Source: a virus (lineage: Duplodnaviria > Heunggongvirae > Uroviricota > Caudoviricetes). Taken from it: 44,897 nt of DNA. A model generated the notes under the pieces. It was not told where the DNA came from and made no database searches. It was given only the letters and a program-made list of their open reading frames with translations. Positions within the stretch are counted from its first letter, which is position 1, and each line of letters starts with the position of its first letter. The position numbers and the translations under genes were made by a program. The stretch lies in the IMG/VR virus record IMGVR_UViG_2872688378_000003. The stretch is one strand, 5' to 3'. Shown here piece after piece: positions 1,917 to 41,462 of the stretch.

Positions 1917-2849
1917 ATGGACAACGACAAAATTGATCAACACAGCGACGAAATTGAAGTTGAGAGCGAAGAAAAAGAGCGCGGCAAAAAAATAGAAATA
2001 GATGAAGACCGACTCCCCTCCCGGGCGATGGCAATTCATGAGCATATCCGCCAGGATGGTGAAAAAGAGCTGGAACGCGACGCAGTGGCGCTACTGTGGT
2101 CAGCCATTGCGGCGGGTCTGTCGATGGGCGCTTCGTTACTGGCAAAAGGGATATTTCAAGTCGAACTGGAAGGTGTGCCGGGCAGCTTCTTGCTGGAGAA
2201 TCTCGGTTATACCTTTGGTTTTATTATCGTCATTATGGCCCGCCAGCAATTATTTACCGAAAATACCGTGACTGCGGTACTACCCGTCATGCAAAAACCG
2301 ACAATGAGCAACGTCGGCTTACTTATACGGTTATGGGGCGTCGTGCTGCTGGGTAATATTCTCGGGACAGGTATTGCGGCGTGGGCATTTGAATATATGC
2401 CTATCTTCAATGAAGAAACTCGCGATGCATTTGTCAAAATCGGCATGGATGTGATGAAGAACACCCCCAGCGAGATGTTTGCCAACGCGATCATTTCCGG
2501 CTGGCTGATCGCCACTATGGTTTGGATGTTTCCTGCAGCGGGTGCGGCAAAGATTGTGGTGATTATATTGATGACCTGGCTTATTGCCCTGGGTGACACC
2601 ACCCATATCGTGGTCGGTTCTGTTGAAATCCTCTATCTGGTGTTTAACGGTACGCTGCACTGGAGCGATTTCATCTGGCCCTTCGCACTACCTACTTTAG
2701 CGGGGAACATCTGCGGCGGCACCTTTATCTTCGCGTTAATGAGTCATGCACAGATTCGTAACGACATGAGCAATAAGCGTAAAGCAGAAGCACGCCAAAA
2801 AGCAGAACGTGCGGAAAACATTAAGAAAAATTATAAAAACCCGGCATAA
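1917..2849 (+). CDS. yfdC: Formate/nitrite transporter family inner-membrane protein YfdC
   Basis: 310-aa ORF, hydrophobic multi-pass membrane protein; position immediately upstream of argW as in K-12. Confidence 0.8.
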   Translation: MDNDKIDQHSDEIEVESEEKERGKKIEIDEDRLPSRAMAIHEHIRQDGEKELERDAVALLWSAIAAGLSMGASLLAKGIFQVELEGVPGSFLLENLGYTFGFIIVIMARQQLFTENTVTAVLPVMQKPTMSNVGLLIRLWGVVLLGNILGTGIAAWAFEYMPIFNEETRDAFVKIGMDVMKNTPSEMFANAIISGWLIATMVWMFPAAGAAKIVVIILMTWLIALGDTTHIVVGSVEILYLVFNGTLHWSDFIWPFALPTLAGNICGGTFIFALMSHAQIRNDMSNKRKAEARQKAERAENIKKNYKNPA

Positions 2850-2924
2850 ATGGCGAGGGTTTAAGCAATCGAGCGGCAGCGTACTTACCCCGCACTCCAT
2901 TAGCGGGTATACTCATGCCGCATT

Positions 2925-2999
2925 GTCCTCTTAGTTAAATGGATATAACGAGCCCCTCCTAAGGGCTAATTGCAGGTTCGATTCCTGCAGGGGACACCA
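2925..2999 (+). tRNA. argW: tRNA-Arg (anticodon CCU), argW; prophage integration site (attL side)
   Basis: 75-nt sequence GTCCTCTTAGTTAAATGG...GGTTCGATTCCTGCAGGGGACACCA with T-loop GGTTCGATTCC, CCA end and anticodon loop CTCCTAA. Confidence 0.95.
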
Positions 3000-3124
3000 T
3001 TTATCAGTTCGCTCCCATCCGTACCAGTCCGCAAAATCCCCTGAATATCAAGCCTTCCGTAGATTCACAGTTCGTCATGGTTCGCGTCAGATCGTTGACA
3101 GCCGCACTCCATGACGGGTAAAAA

Positions 3125-4318
3125 GTGGATAAAATAATTTTACCCACCGGATTTTTACCCATGCTCACCGTTAAGCAGATTGAAGCAGCAAAGCCGAAAG
3201 AAAAACCATACCGCCTACTCGATGGTAATGGCCTGTACCTTTATGTCCCTGTGTCAGGGAAAAAGGTATGGCAGCTTCGCTACAAGATTGACGGTAAGGA
3301 GAAAATCCTGACCGTCGGAAAATATCCGCTAATGACTTTGCAGGAGGCAAGAGATAAAGCATGGACCGCGAGGAAAGACATCTCGGTTGGCATCGATCCG
3401 GTAAAAGCGAAAAAGGCTTCGTCTAACAACAATTCCTTTAGTGCCATTTACAAGGAATGGTACGAGCACAAGAAGCAAGTCTGGTCAGTAGGCTATGCAA
3501 CTGAACTTGCCAAAATGTTTGATGACGACATTTTACCCATCATCGGCGGTCTTGAGATTCAGGATATTGAGCCGATGCAACTGCTGGAAGTAATCCGCAG
3601 ATTTGAAGATCGCGGTGCAATGGAGCGAGCCAACAAAGCCCGCAGAAGATGCGGCGAGGTTTTCCGTTACGCTATTGTCACCGGCAGGGCTAAATATAAC
3701 CCGGCACCTGACCTTGCTGACGCCATGAAGGGGTACCGCAAGAAGAACTTCCCGTTTCTTCCTGCAGACCAGATCCCGGCATTCAATAAAGCACTGGCAA
3801 CATTTTCAGGAAGTATCGTATCGCTCATTGCCACCAAGGTTTTACGCTACACTGCCCTAAGAACGAAAGAGCTTCGTTCCATGCTATGGAAGAACGTCGA
3901 TTTTGAAAACAGGATTATCACCATCGACGCCAGTGTGATGAAAGGACGCAAAATTCATGTGGTCCCGATGTCAGACCAGGTGGTTGAACTTCTCACTACG
4001 TTAAGCTCCATCACCAAACCAGTATCAGAGTTTGTTTTTGCCGGGCGCAACGATAAGAAGAAGCCAATCTGCGAGAATGCGGTACTGCTTGTGATCAAAC
4101 AAATCGGCTATGAAGGTCTGGAAAGCGGTCACGGATTCAGGCATGAATTCAGCACGATTATGAACGAGCACGAATGGCCTGCTGACGCTATTGAAGTGCA
4201 ACTGGCACATGCCAACGGCGGATCTGTGCGCGGGATTTACAACCATGCTCAGTATCTCGATAAGCGCAGAGAAATGATGCAATGGTGGGCGGACTGGCTT
4301 GATGAAAAGGTGGAGTGA
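3125..4318 (+). CDS. intS: Tyrosine integrase, P4/IntS family (prophage integrase)
   Basis: Translation contains the characteristic N-terminal MLTVKQIEAAKPKEKPYRLLDGNGLYLYV motif and C-terminal catalytic region (...HGFRHEF...YNHAQYL); likely true start is the ATG at 3161; lies directly after argW. Confidence 0.9.
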   Translation: MDKIILPTGFLPMLTVKQIEAAKPKEKPYRLLDGNGLYLYVPVSGKKVWQLRYKIDGKEKILTVGKYPLMTLQEARDKAWTARKDISVGIDPVKAKKASSNNNSFSAIYKEWYEHKKQVWSVGYATELAKMFDDDILPIIGGLEIQDIEPMQLLEVIRRFEDRGAMERANKARRRCGEVFRYAIVTGRAKYNPAPDLADAMKGYRKKNFPFLPADQIPAFNKALATFSGSIVSLIATKVLRYTALRTKELRSMLWKNVDFENRIITIDASVMKGRKIHVVPMSDQVVELLTTLSSITKPVSEFVFAGRNDKKKPICENAVLLVIKQIGYEGLESGHGFRHEFSTIMNEHEWPADAIEVQLAHANGGSVRGIYNHAQYLDKRREMMQWWADWLDEKVE

Positions 4319-4405
4319 TCCGCCTTAACCACTATCGAAGTGCACAAAGCCTTGCAATCCAGTGCAAAGCTTTGTGTGTATCAGTTTTGTCCTGTGCGCC
4401 GGATA

Positions 4406-4852
4406 TCAATTGGCCTGCTCCCCCGGAGGCGTAGGCCAGACGGGATTTGATGTATCAACGCGCATCAGCAAGACCCGGTATTTTTTCCATTCAGATAACG
4501 CGGCGGTTTCTTCTACCGTCGCGATTTCCGCATCAAAAGCATCCTGTCTCCAGACTATTTCCTTATCAGCCATAGAACGCAATACCGTTCTTTTCTGTTC
4601 AGCCTGAATAATCTGTTGTTCAGCGGAGAGTGGCGGGATATCAATCCACGCAGGATTACCATTTTTATCAGCCCCCAGCGTTTTGCCTTCTGGCGCTACG
4701 CCTGTGTAAATTGCCATTGTTTCATCATCAACATCAGCGCCATTTTCAGGCCATGAACCGGCGCTGATATATACATCTTTTAGTGCTTCCGGATAGAAAG
4801 AGCCTTTATAAAATTTATTCATTCTTAATACCCCAACGCGATAAAACAACAA
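4406..4852 (-). CDS. Tail fibre assembly protein (Tfa)
   Basis: C-terminal ...SEWKKYRVLLMRVDTSNPVWPTPP resembles the conserved Tfa C-domain; likely start is the internal ATG at 4822 just after the tail fibre stop. Confidence 0.75.
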   Translation of the reverse strand: MLFYRVGVLRMNKFYKGSFYPEALKDVYISAGSWPENGADVDDETMAIYTGVAPEGKTLGADKNGNPAWIDIPPLSAEQQIIQAEQKRTVLRSMADKEIVWRQDAFDAEIATVEETAALSEWKKYRVLLMRVDTSNPVWPTPPGEQAN

Positions 4853-5742
4853 TCTTCGGTGCCCTCTCCGGATGGCGACCAGTTCTGAATACTGATATGC
4901 GTTCTGCTGGCAATACGCACATTCATCGCGGCATTGTAGCCAGATGTTCCACGGTTTCCGGTCGCAAATAAGCCTGCATAGGGAAAAGCAAATGGTAAGG
5001 CATATCCAGTATCAGCTCCCTTTTGTGTTGCCACCGTTCCCCACTGCAACATAAGTTTCACCGGGTTTCCTGTCGTCGCAATGCATGGAATGTAGATGTA
5101 ACCATTACCTGACATCATTGACCTGAAGCTGTCTAAATCCAGTAACTTCGAGGGATTATCTGCTCCAACATCTCGTGTTGCAGCGGTCCCTAACTGGAGC
5201 GCATTTCGGAAGGCTGATACATCAGAAATATCAGATCCATTAGCCGATTTCTGCATAGCTCCGGAGGCTTTATTTATCGTTTCTCCCAAACCAAGGTATG
5301 TGAGAATGTCTGCAATAGTATTTTTCCCGATAATGTCACGGCCTACAGAAGTTAAATCAGTCTGCGCTGCTGTATCATTTCCAGTGAAATACGGGAGTTT
5401 ATTTGCACCGGTTTCGAGCCCAGCCAATGCCGTCAGCGTGGCATCAAGGGCCTGGAAATCCTTCCCAAAAGCGGTTCCCATTTTGGAGATAAACCCGTTC
5501 AGGTCACCATCATCAAGCACGTCCAGCCCACTTTTGTTGGCTGTGTACTGCGCAAGCGCTGCCGCAATAAAGCTGGCCTGTCGAATAACCTTATTGACTT
5601 GCGCACTGGATGCTTTCCCTGCTGTAAATCCGGATAAAAGCGCAGGCAACGCTTCCCATTCCTCCTGCGACATAACATTGGCATTTCGATCCGTTGCAAA
5701 CGCTTTAAAGTCATTTTTCGCCATCAGAGTAATACTCCCCAT
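4825..5742 (-). CDS. Tail fibre protein
   Basis: Precedes tfa; N-terminal region MSQEEWEALP... typical of Mu/P2-type fibre N-termini; likely start at 5724 (ATGA overlap with upstream gene). Confidence 0.7.
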   Translation of the reverse strand: MGSITLMAKNDFKAFATDRNANVMSQEEWEALPALLSGFTAGKASSAQVNKVIRQASFIAAALAQYTANKSGLDVLDDGDLNGFISKMGTAFGKDFQALDATLTALAGLETGANKLPYFTGNDTAAQTDLTSVGRDIIGKNTIADILTYLGLGETINKASGAMQKSANGSDISDVSAFRNALQLGTAATRDVGADNPSKLLDLDSFRSMMSGNGYIYIPCIATTGNPVKLMLQWGTVATQKGADTGYALPFAFPYAGLFATGNRGTSGYNAAMNVRIASRTHISIQNWSPSGEGTEDCCFIALGY

Positions 5743-22000: not shown

Positions 22001-23318
22001 TCTCTATGTCCTCGTCGGTAATGGATGCCCCGATGCCGGTTACGTCAGAATTTTCGCGCAAATCGGTCATAGCGGCTTTCAGTGTCATCAGACCATCACC
22101 CAGCGCCGTACTGATTGCGTTGGTAGTGTTTAACGCCACCGTTGAGCGATCGACATCAGACATTTGCCAGAGCGGGTTAAACTCAAACGTGAAATCGTCC
22201 GGCAGCGGCTTACCGAGTTCCGAGCGGTGCATAATGTCCAGTATCCGGCGCATCGGCATCCGTAAGCGGCGCTCCTGCAATGAGCTCACCCGGTCGTAAT
22301 AGTTGGCAAGATCTGCATCACCGGTGGAAAATCCTTTCGGGGACTGTCCGAACAACCGCACCAGTGGAATACCAACAGCGCCACTAATCTGTTCTGCAAA
22401 CTGCGATAGGATGTCATCCAGACCACTGAAGCTGTACTGATGCGTTTCAAACTTATCCCGCGAGTCCATGAGCGTCATGCCTTCATTGCTCTGGAACTGG
22501 CGGATCAGGTCGATGTTCTTCAGCAACGCTTCGAAAGCTGGGCCACCAAGCGCGATAATCTCGCGCAGCTTCTCCACGCTGTAGGTGCGCAGATGCGCTT
22601 TGTAGACCAGCTGAGCCGCGCCGACAGTGGCGCTGTCGAACGCAGTAAGCCGATCCCAGATTCGCTCTACAACCGACATTCCCCATTCGTTTTCGGTCAT
22701 CTTCTGCTGGAATGGCAGCGTCACCCCGTCGAAGCGAATCAGGCGGCTGTGATGGATGCGCCAGGCAGGAATTCCCGTTGCAGTGGTCACCACGTCGTAA
22801 AACTCAGGTTTACCCAGGTCCGGCCCCATCTCTTTAATGCGGCGGGTCAGCACCGGGTTAATCATCCAGCGGTCGAGCGGGAGAATCCCCTTAAACTTGC
22901 CCTTACCGATGGTTTCGGGTCGCAGCGGGGTCATTGGTGCCTGCCCCTCAATCATGATGAAACCCACCGCGCCGCCGTAGAGGCGCGACCATTTCAGCAC
23001 GTCATTCAGCGCATCCCAGATTTGCAACTCATCCAGTTGTGATTCGAGAATGCCACGATCTTTTGCATCAATTTCCGAAGTGATGCGAATGCCTTTGCGG
23101 GTCATATCATCCGGGATAGCATCGACTGCTTCGCCGATGATCCAGGATGAACGATAGGACCATTCCACCAGCATGCGGTTACGACTGGTGAAATTAGCCC
23201 GGTAGGTGGATGCTGAGTGCTGGTTAGGTGTCTGCATCCCTACGCGGGCAATAAAATTCTCATAACCATCAGCTGTGGCCTGCGCAGTTCGCCGCAGGGC
23301 TTGTTTGTTTCGTGCCAT
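21852..23318 (-). CDS. Portal protein
   Basis: 488-aa ORF immediately downstream of terminase large subunit. Confidence 0.75.
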   Translation of the reverse strand: MARNKQALRRTAQATADGYENFIARVGMQTPNQHSASTYRANFTSRNRMLVEWSYRSSWIIGEAVDAIPDDMTRKGIRITSEIDAKDRGILESQLDELQIWDALNDVLKWSRLYGGAVGFIMIEGQAPMTPLRPETIGKGKFKGILPLDRWMINPVLTRRIKEMGPDLGKPEFYDVVTTATGIPAWRIHHSRLIRFDGVTLPFQQKMTENEWGMSVVERIWDRLTAFDSATVGAAQLVYKAHLRTYSVEKLREIIALGGPAFEALLKNIDLIRQFQSNEGMTLMDSRDKFETHQYSFSGLDDILSQFAEQISGAVGIPLVRLFGQSPKGFSTGDADLANYYDRVSSLQERRLRMPMRRILDIMHRSELGKPLPDDFTFEFNPLWQMSDVDRSTVALNTTNAISTALGDGLMTLKAAMTDLRENSDVTGIGASITDEDIENAEDEAPPGIGELGDKPPESPGGDPISNEPTADSAGGRGYRKWSLRWFK

Positions 23319-24940
23319 CAGGCCTGTCTCCCTAGCAGCTCCCAGATGTTCAGGGCTGAATTCATTGGCGCGTAGCTGATCATCACCGAGTCGGCAAGGT
23401 TTGGCGACCGGGTTCCATCAGGCTGTTTATCAATAACGATTTTTCCCACACCATTAATTGAATAGGTCGGCTGCGAAAGCTCGATGATGAGTTTATCTTT
23501 GAGTGCCATGCTACTGCTGATTGATATGATTTCGTCCGGGTTGTAAGCCATACCTTCAACCACGGCGCGCCAGGTATTCTGAAAAAGTTTACGTAACCGC
23601 CACCAGCTCTGGGCTTTGGCGTTAGCGAAGAAGTCCTTGTTCAGACGTGCGGCTTGCCCGTTGTCCCCGCGAACAGCTTCATCATCCGGATCAAATACCG
23701 CGCCACTACCTCGAAACGGTGTGGCGAGTATTGACGGTCGACGCGCAGCGTTACGCAGTTCGTTGATAGCGCGCGCATCGCCGCGAACGCCAGCGCCCAG
23801 CCCGTCCTCGTCAAAGCGAAACTCTTCGAGGTTGTCCTGTTCGCAAAAGCCGAAAACCTTCTCGACGGACTGATAAATGTCGCTGCCCACACCGGACCAT
23901 TCCCGCACGTTCTCCAGGAGGAAGCCGTGACGGGTCGAAAAGGCGTTTTTGTCCCGGCCTTCGTCGGCGACGTCCATCGCGCCCAGTCGCTTGCCTGTTG
24001 GCTGGATGCCCAGCTTGATATGCGCGTCGACAGCAGCCTGTACCCAGTCGGATGGGATCAGGACGCCTTCCGCTGATGCGCTGTAGTTCAGATCAAGTTC
24101 CTGTGCCACCACCACCGGATTATCGATTTTCTCGCATTCCCTGCGATACCACTCTTCATCCTTGCGAGGATCATCCCGCCAGTGGAATGTGAATACCGGT
24201 ATCTTCCCGCCATGACGCTTCTGAGCGAACGGGTTAGCCATGCCGTTAACTGAACTCAGGTCGATACGGCAACGCGTCGTTTGTGACAACGCCGCATCAA
24301 TCAGCAGAGGACGCTGAAGGAATGCAGCCTCATCAACCAGATAAAGCGTGGTACGGTCACCACGACCAATATTATCGCCAGCCTCGCCTTTGATAACGGC
24401 ACCAGTTTCAGGAAACTCAACACGCATATATGGCGCGTGCTTCTTCTCGCTCCACGAACCGCGAAACTCTACAGGCAGTGTTTCCACGAACTTGCGCGCC
24501 TTCCAGAACAATGCTTTCGGGTCACCGGTGCTGTCGACGTATTCCTCTTTACGGGAGCCGAAACCGATAACCATTTCTTTGTTGAAGAGACAAAGCGAGC
24601 AGGCCAGTCCGATCGCGGTCCAACTGAGCCCCATTTCACGGGATTTTTCGGTAATACCATTCTCCCGATTGCCCCAGCGTTCCATAATCCAGTGGATCCA
24701 CTCCTCCTGCTTAGGGAAGAGTAAAAACGGAATGGTCACCGGCAGGCCATAATCAATATTACGCGGGTCCGTTGTCATGCCCCAGTCGATGATGAACTGA
24801 GCCGGATTGGTTCGGTAAAACTGTTTTAGTGCAGGCAATATTTCAGGATTCTGGCGAATGCGCTGTAGGCGTTCCATCCGCCATTCAAAAACCATCTGGT
24901 AATCAGGATGTTTAAAATCGAAGGGAAATGGTAACGGCAT
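23318..24940 (-). CDS. Terminase large subunit
   Basis: 540-aa ORF after small terminase gene; ATPase-like N-terminal half and nuclease-like C-terminal half. Confidence 0.8.
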
Positions 24941-24942
24941 AC

Positions 24943-25494
24943 TTAGCCCATCATTTTTTTATACGCTTCTGCAGCCTGCTCCGGCGTTAAGTTGGTAATT
25001 TCTGTTCTGACTGGTCCTCCGTCAGCACCAGTCACTTCATTTTTGACGTTGTCTTTAAACGCCTGAACAGAAACATGACGCCCAAGCAATTCAAGATTTT
25101 TAACCTTATCAGGCCATTTGATTTTCTTCAGAAGTGCGGCGCTATCTGCAGATACCATCTCCACGACATCCATTCCTGATAGCGTTGTGCGCCATACCTT
25201 AGGCCAGTCTTTGATGGGTTTTAGCTCACCGTTTTGCAGGAGAATGTCAAGCACATCCATCTGGTCGATTTCAATAAGGCGATTAAGTACATATTCTGCA
25301 TTAATACCAACAAGATCATTGCGTTGCGCTTTCAGTTCGGCGATTCTTAACTTGATGTCAGGTTTTGACAGGTTTTCGGATGCGGTACGGTTAGCTGTCT
25401 TTGCGCTGTACCCCGCCCGAATAGCCGCTTGCGTGGCGTTTAAATCGATGAGGTACTCGCGACAGAACATTTCTTGCTTGTCGGTGAGTGCCAT
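24943..25494 (-). CDS. Terminase small subunit
   Basis: 183-aa ORF starting [30 protein letters not shown], the conserved HTH N-terminus of P27-type small terminases. Confidence 0.75.
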
Positions 25495-25516
25495 AAATTA
25501 CCTTTAAGGATTTCAC

Positions 25517-25735
25517 ATGAGTGATGAATACAAACAGAAAATCGGCATTCCAGATGACCATACACTGGAGCTTGTCTCTTCTAACTGGAAAGGAGCTCGA
25601 AAAGGTCAGGATACCGATGAATACCTTTACCGTGAGTTGGACGCTGCGGGAAATGTAGTGGCCACTTATGAAATTAAAGATTCAACTTCTATATATCCAC
25701 CATTCGGAAGATCTATCTCTTATAAGAAGGTCTAA
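25517..25735 (+). CDS. Hypothetical protein, opposite strand to late operon (72 aa)
   Basis: ATG with SD AAGGA 8 nt upstream; divergent from terS with only 22 bp between starts. Confidence 0.4.
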   Translation: MSDEYKQKIGIPDDHTLELVSSNWKGARKGQDTDEYLYRELDAAGNVVATYEIKDSTSIYPPFGRSISYKKV

Positions 25736-26226
25736 GCAACCAACTGACCAGCATGGCATTTCCGATTGAACATTTACACGTCCAGGATAATGCCATGTCT
25801 ATTCCACAGTTCTATCGTCACCTACCGATATTGGCGTGAACTACACGCACTTGACATCAGCAGGAGCGAAGTACGCCCCCTCCCGTCTAGGTCGCCAGCG
25901 GCACAAAGCCATTAACCAGCTCAGGCTGACGTCGTGGCATCTTGCCCGTTTACTCGCCGCCGTCGTTCGTATTCAGTTTGATGATGTAGATGTCGGACAT
26001 TGAGAGCCTCTTTATCCGCTTGTGGGGATATCAGTTAAGTTATCCCGTGTAGGGTATAAGCCATTGTCGAGACCACTCATTGAATGGCCTCTGCAATAAC
26101 CGATGTCTTTCCATCAGTCCGCCACCACAAAGAATCTTTTTTGCCATCAGGCAGGAGGTTCATCTTTCAGTGGCTGCCAGTGTTATTTCCCCACTTACTG
26201 GCTTGGGTTGCTTCGCGGTACTGCCG

Positions 26227-26832
26227 TTAATTAGTGAGCCCGGGGATTACGGTTTGCCCGTGCTGTTCAAGGCGTTCAATTCTCGCCAGTAGCTGAGGCT
26301 TCTTAATTTTTCCCCAGCGATTGAGCAGGCGGCCAGACATACTGGCGACATCCTTCTCTTTCATATACTCCAGCATTATGGCGTTGCGTTCTGCTTCATA
26401 ACTTTCGCTGTACTTACGGAGTTCTGCTGACATCCAGTTAAAGGCATTTATATAGGCCTCTTTAACAGCGTCGGCTTTTGCGCCATTAAATCCCATGACC
26501 AGCATAACGAAGCCACTAAAGTCCATGCGGTAGTAAATCTGTTTCTTGTCGAAAATCCCTAAGTCATTGATTTTTTCGGCAACGCAAAAATGCGCTCTCC
26601 GGAAATCTTCAGAGCAATGACAATTTTTCAGCGCCCTCAATACGTCCGCATGACGCTTACCAAATGCCTTTGCGATCTGGAAGGTGTCAGTTACCGGTTG
26701 ACCTTCTGCTGCGGTAACTAACTGGCGAAAGTCAAAGTCATGATTCACAATTAATTCATTCATGGCGTTACCTGCTACTTCGAAATGAACCTTTGCCGCA
26801 CAGGAAACCAGCCCACCGAGGCTCGCCAGCAC
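26227..26832 (-). CDS. Rha-family phage regulatory protein (antirepressor-like)
   Basis: Sequence MNELIVNHDFDFRQLVTAAEGQPVTDTFQIAKAFGKRHADVLRAL matches the Rha domain N-terminus as recalled; likely true start at 26763. Confidence 0.6.
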   Translation of the reverse strand: MLASLGGLVSCAAKVHFEVAGNAMNELIVNHDFDFRQLVTAAEGQPVTDTFQIAKAFGKRHADVLRALKNCHCSEDFRRAHFCVAEKINDLGIFDKKQIYYRMDFSGFVMLVMGFNGAKADAVKEAYINAFNWMSAELRKYSESYEAERNAIMLEYMKEKDVASMSGRLLNRWGKIKKPQLLARIERLEQHGQTVIPGLTN

Positions 26833-26910
26833 TAACTGGTATCCTCAAAGGCCCATTCCAAAGGGTCAGGTTCGGTGGTTATTGTGCGCTGCGGTGCGCG
26901 GTGAAATACC

Positions 26911-26939
26911 TATACAAAAACGCCCCGCATCTGCGAGGC
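26911..26939 (-). terminator. Putative terminator downstream of the lysis cassette
   Basis: Minus-strand hairpin GCCTCGCAGATGCGGGGCG (one mismatch in stem) followed by TTTTTGTATAG. Confidence 0.45.
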
Positions 26940-26981
26940 ATTTTCCTGAAAGTCACTTGTTAAATTTCAGTGAAATTAAAA

Positions 26982-27419
26982 TTATTTTAAGCACTGCGTC
27001 CTAATGTACTCCTGCAAGTAGTTAACCTGCGCGGTTATCCTGTCGATTCCACTTCGGAGACGGTAATAATTGAGTTCAGCATCTGCTGTAAGTCTTGGGC
27101 TTTCTCCATCGCCCATGCTGCTGGCTCCGGTCGTTGACTTTGCACAGGTGGCGGCGACTTGCAGGCGCTTACGCCCAGCAGAAACATCAGCACGGAGACT
27201 TTCGATAGTCGCGTTAGCATCAGCAAGCTCCTTTGTATATCTGGTGTCGAGTTCTGTTACGTCACGTTGACGCTTTTGCATGTCAGCGATGATGGATGCG
27301 GCCTTATCGCGCTGTTCTTTGTAGGCGATGGCGTTATCACGGTAATGATTAACAGCCCATAACAGGCAGACGATGATGCAGATAACCAGAGCGGAGATAA
27401 TCGCGGTTACTCTGCTCAT
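26982..27419 (-). CDS. Rz: Spanin inner-membrane subunit Rz
   Basis: Translation [19 protein letters not shown]... matches lambda Rz N-terminal TM region; follows R. Confidence 0.85.
27035..27226 (-). CDS. Rz1: Spanin outer-membrane lipoprotein Rz1 (embedded in Rz, +1 frame)
   Basis: Embedded ORF with lipobox LGVSAC and proline-rich segment, as in lambda Rz1. Confidence 0.75.
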
Positions 27420-27892
27420 ACCTCAATCTCTCTGACCGTTCCGCCTGCTTCTTTGAATTTTGCAATCAGGCTGTCAGCCTTATGCTCGAACTGACCATAA
27501 CCAGCCCCCGGAAGTGAAGCCCAGATATTACTGCAACGGTCGATTGCCTGACGGATATCACCGCGATCAATCATCGGCAAAGCGCCACGCTCCTTAATCT
27601 GCTGCAGCGCAACAGCGTCCTGGCTTTTGGGAGAGAAGTCTTTCAGGCCAAGCTGCTTACGATAGGCATCCCACCAACGGGAAAGAAGCTGGTAACGTCC
27701 GGCTGCTGTTGATTTGAGTTTGGGGTTTAGCGTGACAAGTTTGCGAGGGTGATCTGAGTAATCAGTGAATAGCTCTCCGCCAACAATGACGTCATAACCA
27801 TGATTTCTGGTTTTCTGACGTCCGTTATCAGTTCCCTCTGACCACGCCAGCATATCGAGGAACGCCTTACGTTGATTATTGATTTCCACCAT
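27416..27892 (-). CDS. R: Endolysin R (lytic transglycosylase)
   Basis: 158-aa translation [39 protein letters not shown]... essentially identical to lambda R as recalled. Confidence 0.9.
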
Positions 27893-28199
27893 CTTCTACT
27901 CCGGCTTTTTTAGCAGCGAAGCGTTTGATAAGCGAACCAATCGAGTCAGTACCGATGTAGCCGATGAACACGCTCGTTATATAAGCGAGATTGCTACTTA
28001 GTCCGGCGAAGTCGAGAAGGTCACGAATGAACCAGGCGATAATGGCGCACATCGTTGCGTCGATTACTGTTTTTGTAAACGCACCGCCATTATATCTGCC
28101 GCGAAGGTACGCCATTGCAAACGCAAGGATTGCCCCGATGCCTTGTTCCTTTGCCGCGAGAATGGCGGCTAACAGGTCATGTTTTTCTGGCATCTTCAT
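27876..28199 (-). CDS. S: Holin S (S107/S105 dual-start)
   Basis: Translation [20 protein letters not shown]... matches lambda S including the Met-Lys-Met dual start. Confidence 0.9.
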
Positions 28200-28875: not shown

Positions 28876-29499
28876 CTAACGTGTGACCGCATTCAAAATG
28901 TTGTCTGCGATTGACTCTTCTTTGTGGCATTGCACCACCAGAGCGTCATACAGCGGCTTAACAGTGCGTGACCAGGTGGGTTGGGTAAGGTTTGGGATTA
29001 GCATCGTCACAGCGCGATATGCTGCGCTTGCTGGCATCCTTGAATAGCCGACGCCTTTGCATCTTCCGCACTCTTTCTCGACAACTCTCCCCCACAGCTC
29101 TGTTTTGGCAATATCAACCGCACGGCCTGTACCATGGCAATCTCTGCATCTTGCCCCCGGCGTCGCGGCACTACGGCAATAATCCGCATAAGCGAATGTT
29201 GCGAGCACTTGCAGTACCTTTGCCTTAGTATTTCCTTCAAGCTTTGCCACACCACGGTATTTCCCCGATACCTTGTGTGCAAATTGCATCAGATAGTTGA
29301 TAGCCTTTTGTTTGTCATTCTGGCTGAGTTCGTGCTTACCACAGAATGCAGCCATTCCGAATCCGGCTTGTGATTGCGCCATCCCCATAGCAGCCATCAC
29401 ATCAGTACCGGAAAGAGAGTCAGAAGCCGTGGCCCGTGGTGAGTCGCTCATCATCGGGCTTTTTGGCGAATGAAATTTAGCCACGCTTTCGAGTCTCAT
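28876..29499 (-). CDS. Q: Late antiterminator Q
   Basis: 207-aa translation matches lambda Q from memory; zinc-binding Cys cluster (CRDCHGTG...CGRCKG). Confidence 0.9.
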
Positions 29500-40280: not shown

Positions 40281-40988
40281 ATGGATTTGAATAAATTCGA
40301 TGAGCCATTCAGCCCTGAAGATATCGAATGGCGAATACAGCAAAGCGGTAAAACACGCGATGGCAAAGTGTGGGCTATGGTGCTGGCTTATGTCACGAAC
40401 CGGGCAATCATGAAACGCCTGGACGATGTTTGCGGCAAAGCAGGATGGCGCAATGAATACCGCGATATTCCCAACAACGGCGGAGTTGAATGCGGCATAT
40501 CAATAAAGATTGATTCCGAATGGGTAACCAAATGGGATGCTGCTGAAAACACGCAGGTAGAAGCCGTCAAAGGTGGTCGTTCCGGTGCAATGAAGCGCGC
40601 TGCCGTTCAGTGGGGAATCGGTCGGTATCTGTATAACCTTGAGGAAGGTTTCGCACAAACATCTCTCGATAAAAAGCAGGGATGGCACAGGGCAAAACTC
40701 AAGGATGGAACAGGATTTTACTGGCTCCCTCCATCGCTGCCGGGATGGGCAATACCAGCATCAGATAACAAACCATCACCAGAAAATACCAACCAGAAAT
40801 CTCCATCGGTTGACTGCGAACAAATCCTGAAAGACTTCAGCGATTATGCGTCAACAGAAACTGACAAGAAAAAACTCATCGAGCGTTATCAGCGTGACTG
40901 GCAATTAATGGCTGGAAACGAGGAGGCGCAGGCTAAATGCGTTCAGGTAATGAACATCAGAGTTAACGAGCTAAAACAGGCGGCATAA
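40281..40988 (+). CDS. Rad52/Sak-family single-strand annealing recombinase
   Basis: N-terminal region with ...AMKRAAVQWGIGRYLYNL... signature; sits where lambda has bet. Confidence 0.65.
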   Translation: MDLNKFDEPFSPEDIEWRIQQSGKTRDGKVWAMVLAYVTNRAIMKRLDDVCGKAGWRNEYRDIPNNGGVECGISIKIDSEWVTKWDAAENTQVEAVKGGRSGAMKRAAVQWGIGRYLYNLEEGFAQTSLDKKQGWHRAKLKDGTGFYWLPPSLPGWAIPASDNKPSPENTNQKSPSVDCEQILKDFSDYASTETDKKKLIERYQRDWQLMAGNEEAQAKCVQVMNIRVNELKQAA

Positions 40989-41462
40989 ATGGCAATCAGA
41001 GGCGTAAATAAGGTGATCATTATTGGTCGCCTTGGGCATGATCCAGAAATCAGATATTCACCATCAGGAACGGCATTTGCAAACCTTACAGTTGCTACGT
41101 CAGAACAATGGCGTGATAAGCAAACTGGAGAGCAAAAGGAGCAGACGGAGTGGCACCGTGTGGTAATGAGCGGGAAACTGGCAGAAATTGCCAGCGAATA
41201 TCTGCGAAAAGGCTCTGAGGTTTATCTTGAAGGCAAATTGCGGACAAGAAAATGGCAGGATCAAAGCGGACAGGATCGGTTCACTACCGAAGTCATCGTG
41301 GGCGTTGGTGGAACCATGCAAATGCTTGGTGGCAAGCAAGGAGGAAATGAACAGTCTTCACCTCAGCGAAATGACGGTCAGCAACAAAGACAGCAACCTC
41401 AGCAGCAAGGGAATCACAGCGAACCACCTATGAACTTCGACGATTCGGATATTCCGTTCTAG
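40989..41462 (+). CDS. ssb: Single-stranded DNA-binding protein
   Basis: OB-fold N-terminus ...[19 protein letters not shown]...[50 protein letters not shown]..., Gln/Gly-rich linker and acidic tail DDSDIPF. Confidence 0.9.

Follow-up and report, generated by a model that had tools for sequence, protein, structure and literature searches.

A Variable Accessory Gene Slot between the Lysis and Packaging Genes of an Escherichia coli Prophage, Probably Allelic to the P22 pid Locus

Introduction

What occupies the space between the lysis genes and the DNA-packaging genes of a lambdoid prophage when part of that space appears to encode nothing at all? The question is raised by positions 25495–26980 of a 44,897-nucleotide (nt) stretch of tailed-phage DNA (Caudoviricetes; IMG/VR record IMGVR_UViG_2872688378_000003). 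This whole stretch is called the window below, and positions refer to it unless another locus is named. The region belongs to an Escherichia coli prophage whose late genes lie on the minus strand. An initial annotation made from the sequence alone described, between the lysis genes Rz/Rz1 and the terminase small-subunit gene terS, a putative terminator, a Rha-family gene, about 490 base pairs (bp; 25740–26226) without an open reading frame (ORF) of 60 amino acids (aa) or more, and a 72-aa ORF on the opposite strand. All of these features were found at or near the places assigned to them. The ORF-free stretch had been proposed to hold the packaging site, a small RNA, or regulatory elements. The explanation that best accounts for the region is a different one: it is probably a variable accessory (moron) slot of the late operon, allelic to the pid locus of phage P22, with the 72-aa ORF as its present cargo.

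The Slot and Its Cargo

The 72-aa gene (25517–25735, plus strand) is oriented opposite to the late genes, and its ATG lies 22 nt from the ATG of terS (24943–25494, minus strand; start at 25494), so that the two genes stand head-to-head. A megablast comparison against phages returned P22, BTP1, and many other Lederbergvirus records, which match the region at about 96% in two pieces. One piece covers the first ~82 nt of terS and the other begins at 26024 and takes in rha and Rz, while the ~530 bp between them is replaced. In P22 and BTP1 the replacing segment carries pid, also on the strand of the 72-aa ORF, and then a Rho-independent terminator. The pid gene is a moron whose transcription runs against that of the late operon and whose expression is high both in the phage carrier state and in lysogens of BTP1 (PMC3573128, PMC7067206), and in related phages its site is either empty or filled by another insert (PMC3573128). 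The two loci share the slot, the orientation, and a small ORFan protein as product (Cenens 2013, PMC3573128; Wolput 2022, PMC8835761), their flanks are 94–96% identical, and the region of the promoter and 5′ untranslated region (5′UTR) is homologous and derived from terS in both. The proteins themselves are unrelated. Pid matches phrog_16546 (1.8e-50), the 72-aa protein has no PHROG match, and BLASTP found no alignment between them at E up to 100. In the absence of detectable similarity, the two genes have a location in common and not an ancestry. The loci also differ in that pid ends at a canonical Rho-independent terminator whereas the window has a hairpin without a U tract, and in that the terS sequence of P22 is a dead relic whereas the window has a working terS, to which the leader of an opposing mRNA would be antisense.

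The variability of the slot extends well beyond this pair. Eighty IMG/VR loci encoding the same terS family were fetched, and 78 were usable. In 57 of the 78, an ATG-initiated ORF of 45 aa or more, divergent from terS, starts 12–31 nt from the terS ATG, and these ORFs fall into 17 unrelated clusters. Homology between loci ends at the terS ATG, each type of cargo having its own gap of 12–31 nt, and terS is 96–99% identical between loci whose cargo is different. In four "empty" loci (L074, L076, L077, and L093), the late leader described below directly precedes terS. An accessory gene that is variably present at a fixed site is one mark of a moron locus, and here the site is found with pid in P22 and BTP1, with 17 alternative cargo families, and with nothing. 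Comparative alignment with related phages has therefore sustained the accessory region of the initial annotation, whose cargo is replaceable relative to both P22/BTP1 and the other loci, and has spoken against a packaging site in the ORF-free stretch. The isolated phage vB_EcoM-606R2 (L127, 24900–28200), with a TerL 99.4% identical to that of the window, has Rz, 61 bp, and then terS, with neither rha nor cargo. The C-terminal ~65 aa of its TerS are 98% identical, the N-terminal domain is a different allele, and identity overall is 66%, as if the DNA-recognition end had undergone a domain swap. This difference in the N-terminal domain makes the phage weak proof that the region is dispensable for packaging.

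Little can be read from the cargo by name. Pfam and PADLOC scans took in eleven clusters, the 72-aa family and ten others, and gave no match above threshold. Among the other cargo, the only Pfam hits were two weak matches below the cut-off, to DUF2441 and CxxCxxCC. One cargo cluster, which is YodC-like, has an annotated family name.

The 72-Residue Protein Family

That the 72-aa ORF is a real gene, as had been supposed, follows from its substitution pattern and from the conservation of its length and sequence motif. Compared with Cronobacter phage phiES15, a Pantoea prophage, and two other loci, its ratio of nonsynonymous to synonymous differences (pN/pS) is 0.03–0.12, with pS of 0.47–0.93. 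Homologues form 26 clusters at 58–99% identity in E. coli, Cronobacter, and Yersinia, all 72–81 aa long except two truncated fragments, and a full profile search with the family extends it to 115 clusters at 50% identity. The motif DSTS[IT]YPPFGR is invariant. No family match for the protein was found in Pfam, PHROGs, NCBIfam, or PADLOC. In enterobacterial prophages its place is invariably the interval between lysis genes and terminase, with the late genes running the other way. In phages of the Nu1 type it lies ~300 bp from Rz behind another plus-strand ORF, and so has a different promoter there.

Hints of function come from the settings of its relatives. A 76-aa homologue sits inside a Type I restriction-modification (RM) operon in 23 species, mostly marine gammaproteobacteria, in the order half-hsdS, DUF2188, 76-aa homologue, hsdM, and the DUF2188 neighbor matches the PADLOC candidate PDC-S16. 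In three clusters (P0080, P0121, and P0136), the 72-aa domain forms the C-terminal part of PIN_8 nucleases, and in one (P0100) it is fused to DUF2326. Given these relatives in Type I RM operons and at PIN_8 C-termini, the 72-aa protein, which would be a small cytoplasmic α+β domain, is most likely a protein-binding accessory factor of a defense or counter-defense system, a role suggested by genomic context. The association with RM operons and PIN nucleases is a lead that seems not to have been described before.

Several smaller observations accompany the family. The half-hsdS/DUF2188/76-aa/hsdM module is near-identical across many gammaproteobacterial genera (L009, L011–L030, L037, and L038; around 2070–4950), and such near-identity across 23 species suggests recent horizontal transfer. 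The L039 version of the module also has SLATT, SMODS, and hsdR. A serine recombinase adjoins half-hsdS in L038 and may point to phase variation, and an integron-type integrase adjoins the homologue in L034. Weak repeated matches to the family occur in the giant proteins P0088 and P0103, where they may stem from a YD-repeat-like β-hairpin.

The Late Leader and the ORF-Free Stretch

The stretch at 25740–26226 contains no ATG-initiated ORF of 60 aa or more, as the initial annotation had stated, yet it is not free of genes: ~200 bp of it is a decayed gene that had gone unrecognized. The stretch can be divided into four parts, namely the gap between the convergent genes (25736–25798), the pseudogene (25799–26000), a ribosome-binding site (RBS) with a hairpin termed B (26001–26047), and the remainder of a late leader (26048–26226). 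The pseudogene lies on the minus strand and was a small late gene of phrog_6581, 67 aa long when intact. Relative to intact homologues, of which L005:2463–2666 matches phrog_6581 at 1.3e-31, it has three in-frame stops (TAC>TAA at 25950, GAA>TAG at 25887–25889, and CAG>TAG at 25843) and a 2-bp deletion after 25884, and these lesions identify it as a pseudogene. The gene is intact in E. coli 210205630, in Enterobacter phage CobraSix, and in IMG/VR locus L105, which has the same arrangement as the window. Two other ORFs in the stretch were set aside. A TTG-initiated 70-aa ORF (26080–26292, plus strand), which overlaps the right part of the stretch and runs antisense into rha, is probably spurious, and so is a 55-aa ORF called by PGAP (25836–26003, plus strand), which is antisense to the pseudogene and matches no family. 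RefSeq annotates the same antisense 55-aa protein in E. coli ETEC1702 (L004:2842–3009), where it is probably not real either.

Between the pseudogene and the 72-aa gene lies a hairpin at 25752–25797 (CATGGCATT...AATGCCATG), with fold z-scores of −2.6 on the plus strand and −3.9 on the minus strand. In L105 its outer stem is kept and the inner sequence is different. It is the probable 3′ end or stabilizer of the 72-aa gene's mRNA.

Upstream of the pseudogene on the late strand is a conserved noncoding leader (26024–26226, minus strand), a block of ~200 nt that at least 200 phage records share and that is mostly unannotated in them. Its carriers include HK022, mEp235, Sf101, L, ST104, and Stx phages. 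What follows the leader differs from phage to phage: the phrog_6581 relic in the window, a "MAEI.." gene in both HK022 and L, and in P22 the pid terminator. The next late gene, of whatever kind, always has the leader in front of it. Its late-strand fold is more stable than that of shuffled sequences (z = −3.5, compared with −1.5 for the plus strand). Small ORFs within it do not behave as genes. A 35-aa ORF (26040–26147, minus strand), the homologue of P22 orf25, and plus-strand ORFs of 43–70 aa were considered. They vary in length and change mostly nonsynonymously, P22 has a stop in the 35-aa ORF, and HK022 has ATG>ATA in another.

The strongest signal in the leader comes from hairpin A (26063–26097, minus strand), which comprises a 4-bp outer stem, a 2 × 2 internal loop, a 10-bp stem, and a variable loop, followed by GAYAATGG. 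Covariation was computed over 15 distinct versions. In these, 96.2% of cells are paired compared with 88.2% in shuffles, and none of 500 shuffles reaches 96.2%. In six pairs both sides have changed, pairing is 33–52% in slid registers, and RNAalifold recovers the stem. Pairing falls from 96.2% on the late strand to 84.2% on the opposite strand, with 29 G–U cells. These compensatory changes and strand-specific G–U pairs indicate that hairpin A is an RNA structure in the late transcript. It has no Rfam match, no description of it was found in the literature searched, and as a conserved late-leader hairpin it appears to be new and offers a lead of its own. Our guess is that it serves mRNA processing or stabilization between the lysis and head segments. 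Hairpin A was also seen in L001, L003, L045 (two copies), L053, L056, L075, L081, L083, L092–L094, L100, and L123.

Hairpin B (GGGGATA...TATCCC; 26024–26047, minus strand), which the initial annotation had pointed out, is real but modest. Its predicted free energy is about −10 kcal/mol, with z = −1.3 on the plus strand and −3.1 on the late strand. The pattern GGATA-N7–12-TATCC occurs once in the window where 0.10 is expected by chance. The arms are invariant while the loops differ (P22, L005, L079, and L108), a third GGATAA and then the RBS of the next late gene follow downstream, and the hairpin lies at or near the end of the P22 homology. The suggestion that the stretch holds regulatory elements is borne out to the extent that a structured, conserved RNA element is present.

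Whether this element has a function of its own is the point on which one alternative turns. The leader and its hairpins might have none and persist simply as a recombination joint between modules. Breakpoints of homology fall at or inside the leader, ~400-bp insertions split the block, and the comparison has limited power because identity exceeds 90% among most copies. Against this, the pairing of hairpin A has been kept through six two-sided changes and with strand-specific G–U pairs, which is unlike neutral linker DNA, and we consider a functionless joint possible, if somewhat unlikely. As a separate matter, the insertions in L075, L084, and L096, which fall between the proximal part of the leader and hairpin A, mark a second insertion point inside the leader.

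A Candidate Promoter Inside terS

How the 72-aa gene is expressed is the next question. The divergent gap (25495–25516) holds two back-to-back Shine–Dalgarno sequences, AAGGA for the 72-aa gene and AAAGG for terS. At 22 nt it is too short for a promoter, which must be sought in terS or beyond, as the initial annotation had recognized in calling for a promoter embedded in terS. A candidate sigma-70 promoter (25319–25354, plus strand) lies antisense in terS codons 50–58, with the −35 hexamer TTGCGT (25319–25324), a 17-nt spacer, and the −10 hexamer GATTCT (25342–25347). Its start, predicted near 25354, would give a 5′UTR of ~163 nt antisense to the 5′ end of terS. The candidate is homologous to the pid promoter of P22, where the start has been mapped to P22 nt 40,880, 174 nt ahead of the pid ATG and preceded by an eroded −10 box, AATCCT, and where −10 mutations closer to consensus raised pid expression 4- to 6-fold (PMC8835761). 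In our P22 locus (L001) the pid start is at 845, the −10 box at 833–838, and the −35 box, TTGCTT, at 810–815. The window promoter fits the consensus as well, or as poorly, as that of P22.

The surroundings of these P22 elements reveal where they came from. L001:712–984 (P22 nt 40741–41013) is a decayed 5′ fragment of a Terminase_2 terS, homologous to window 25239–25494. It is 94% identical to the window terS over the first 82 nt and 62–68% identical beyond, with indels and with GTG replacing the ATG. The relic sits between orf80 and pid and holds the pid promoter, start, and 174-nt 5′UTR, and one P22-like record annotates part of it as "terminase small subunit". Because the mapped elements fall in this relic, the pid promoter and its long 5′UTR are terS-derived sequence read antisense, an origin that appears not to have been described. 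The seemingly meaningless surroundings of the P22 pid promoter are thus the dead 5′ end of terS, and the window displays the living arrangement. This homology makes a weak sigma-70 promoter antisense in terS the most likely source of transcription for the 72-aa gene. A second possible −35 box, TTGACA at 25365–25370 (plus strand), is invariant in most terS alleles and was rejected, as no acceptable −10 box lies 15–18 nt downstream. The homologous hexamer in P22 is downstream of the mapped pid start, and the study that mapped it found no further promoter in the 244 bp immediately upstream of pid (PMC8835761).

The alleles of terS offer a further, suggestive association, that of the −10 box with cargo. 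Nearly all alleles that bear cargo read [GA]AT[TC]CT at the antisense −10 position, and two are exactly AATCCT, as in P22. This reading requires an AGA or AGG (AGR) arginine codon at terS codon 50. Nine of the ten cargo-less alleles have CGN or another codon there and so do not have the critical final T. If the embedded promoter is real, it would be a simple case of an antisense promoter constraining a coding sequence. Synonymous differences in terS codons 1–29 (25407–25494) are 0.17–0.24, compared with mostly 0.28–0.53 in later segments, and in codons 1–29 and 40–48 (25351–25377) synonymous divergence is about half that of most later segments. An antisense leader could produce this pattern, as could frequent recombination at the flank, a pac site inside terS, or constraint on the protein.

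Taken together, the slot would work as follows. Late transcription would run through Rz/Rz1, a read-through terminator, rha, the ~200-nt structured leader, the decayed phrog_6581 gene, and terS. The 72-aa mRNA would start at the terS-embedded promoter with a ~160-nt 5′UTR complementary to the terS RBS and first 47 codons and would end at the convergent hairpin. The unit would be independent of Q antitermination and active in lysogens or in the carrier state, and in lytic growth it would be opposed by head-on late transcription. Cargo would be exchanged by homologous recombination between two conserved flanks, the hairpin-bearing leader and the 5′ end of terS.

A number of observations weigh against this picture. 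The candidate promoter agrees with consensus at only 6 of 12 positions, and a consensus promoter scan calls no plus-strand promoter near terS or the 72-aa ORF. A 232-bp P22 fragment that still had the −35 and −10 boxes lost activity (PMC8835761), and a pid-type promoter may accordingly need upstream sequences. Relatedness confounds the association of the −10 box with cargo, since the alleles that have none fall into few clades. The association has exceptions in Pantoea, which has cargo and GATGCG, and in L058, which has GATTCT and no adjacent cargo. AGR makes up 14% of arginine codons in the late genes and is thus not very rare. The hairpin at 25752–25797 has no U tract and is not called by the terminator scan, so that the 72-aa gene has no Rho-independent terminator of its own, though an own terminator is a looser feature of morons than variable presence, independent transcription, and an own promoter. 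Finally, PADLOC matches none of the ten other cargo families scanned, and a defense role for the slot accordingly draws on context.

The weakness of the promoter leaves room for other routes to expression. The 72-aa gene might start further upstream, antisense in terL or beyond, might depend on an activator from the phage or the host, or might be silent in the prophage. The failure of the scan to call the candidate, the P22 truncation result with its hint of upstream dependence, and the use of another promoter for the same gene in Nu1-type phages all fit such schemes. However, the −35 box, spacer, −10 box, and start region are homologous to those of the mapped P22/BTP1 promoter, pid is highly transcribed in BTP1 lysogens (PMC7067206), and the fixed distance of 12–31 nt at which 17 cargo families start from the terS ATG suggests a common upstream signal. 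We judge these other routes unlikely, and the promoter embedded in terS, blank in the consensus scan as it is, keeps its place as the best-supported route by virtue of the P22/BTP1 −10 box and start.

A broader reading can be put forward tentatively. The 5′ coding region of terS might be an expression platform, in which an antisense promoter held by the AGR codon, together with a leader antisense to the terS start, drives whatever promoterless cargo is recombined into a slot 12–31 nt from the terS ATG. The pid promoter and 5′UTR would be a fossil left after P22 changed its terminase, and the 72-aa cargo would represent a new family of conflict-system proteins linked to Type I RM systems and PIN_8 nucleases.

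Small RNA and Packaging Site

The initial annotation also raised the possibility of a small RNA. An independent small regulatory RNA encoded in the ORF-free stretch would account for the late-strand fold that is more stable than shuffles (z = −3.5), for the covariation of hairpin A, and for a weak terminator-like site on the plus strand at 26137–26158. It is nonetheless quite improbable. No Rfam 15 match was found at E up to 1 over 24500–28000, neither strand has a promoter-like site within the stretch or adjoining it, and no promoter–terminator pair is present. Moreover, the structures are oriented with the late mRNA and, in all phages examined, immediately precede the RBS of the next late gene. 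This orientation and position fit a leader in the polycistronic late transcript.

A packaging site fares worst. The location just upstream of terS, where lambda has cos, and the reduced synonymous divergence at the 5′ end of terS are in its favor, as is the precedent of SPP1, whose Terminase_2-family TerS recognizes a pac site that extends across the 5′ end of the terS gene itself. Packaging by a pac or cos site in 25495–26226 is nevertheless unlikely, and by one in 25740–26226 highly so, because loci with 96–99% identical terS have entirely different sequence upstream of the terS ATG, because the 200-bp leader is common to phages with unrelated terminases, namely P22 (with its own gene-3 terminase and a dead terS fragment) and HK022, which we take to be a cos phage, and is found in phage L as well, and because a decaying gene takes up ~200 bp of the stretch. 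The segment next to terS thus shows none of the conservation among phages with the same terminase recognition subunit that a packaging site calls for. A pac site inside terS itself is possible.

Relation to Known Systems

In integrons, the Pc promoter inside intI drives divergently oriented cassettes. The slot resembles this platform in that a promoter (here inferred) in the coding sequence of a conserved gene would drive swappable, promoterless, head-to-head cargo. It differs in that no integrase or attC/attI is evident in it, in that it holds one or two genes only, and in that exchange apparently occurs by homologous recombination at conserved flanks. Should the platform reading prove true, the locus would resemble an integron without an integrase.

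Among phage morons, lambda bor encodes a lipoprotein on the opposite strand and is expressed from the prophage. Like bor and the Tai systems, the 72-aa gene is an accessory gene between the lysis cassette and the packaging genes. It has no sequence relationship to either, and its protein, judged from the sequence, has no signal peptide. The Tai defense morons lie mostly upstream of the module for packaging, for example in phi80-like phages (PMC11364771). The P2/P4 defense hotspots likewise offer a fixed locus with many unrelated and mostly uncharacterized genes (Rousset 2022, PMC9122126), and they are unlike the present slot in that neither the ten cargo families tested nor the 72-aa protein has a PADLOC match. 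A moron in an accessory slot between lysis and packaging genes is thus familiar, and the basic picture of lambdoid genome organization is unchanged by these findings. A cargo slot that keeps a fixed spacing to terS and takes at least 17 gene families seems not to have been described. As these families are unrelated and almost all uncharacterized, the slot could be mined for prophage-expressed functions.

Surrounding Genes

The remaining late genes of the locus, all on the minus strand, are Q (28876–29499), holin (27876–28199), lysozyme (27416–27892), Rz (26982–27419), Rz1 (27035–27226), and, beyond terS, terL (23318–24940). TerS matches Terminase_2 (PF03592, 6.8e-40). The putative terminator after Rz/Rz1 (~26916–26945, minus strand) turns out to be a strong intrinsic one, with an A tract, the GC-rich stem GCCUCGC-AGAU-GCGGGGC, and then the U tract GUUUUUGU. 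Its predicted free energy is −25.9 kcal/mol (77-nt stretch folded; z = −4.64), and none of 200 shuffles is equally stable. Given its A and U tracts it could be active in both directions, and Q-modified late transcription is expected to read through it. It lies inside a block 96% identical to P22.

The Rha-family assignment of the next gene, rha (26227–26832, minus strand), is confirmed by matches to Phage_pRha (PF09669, 4.5e-22, 78.9 bits against a gathering cut-off of 29.9) and, in the C-terminal domain, to ORF11CD3 (PF10549, 6.6e-28, 97.1 bits against a cut-off of 25). The protein also matches phrog_518 (6e-83). Its true start is probably the ATG at 26763, which would give 178 aa. The counterpart in P22 is P22 rha, named ORF201 in older P22 records. 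RefSeq marks rha as frameshifted in E. coli ETEC1702 (L004:3233–3839), one of 15 E. coli genomes with the cassette. Strains in which the cassette is identical include E. coli CUVET20-1667, ETEC4089, and DETEC-P80.

No tRNA genes were found in the region under study. Elsewhere in the window, a tRNA-Arg (CCT) gene (2925–2999) adjoins a 397-aa ORF (3125–4318) at one end of the block of phage-like genes, and the two may be the integration site and the integrase, respectively.

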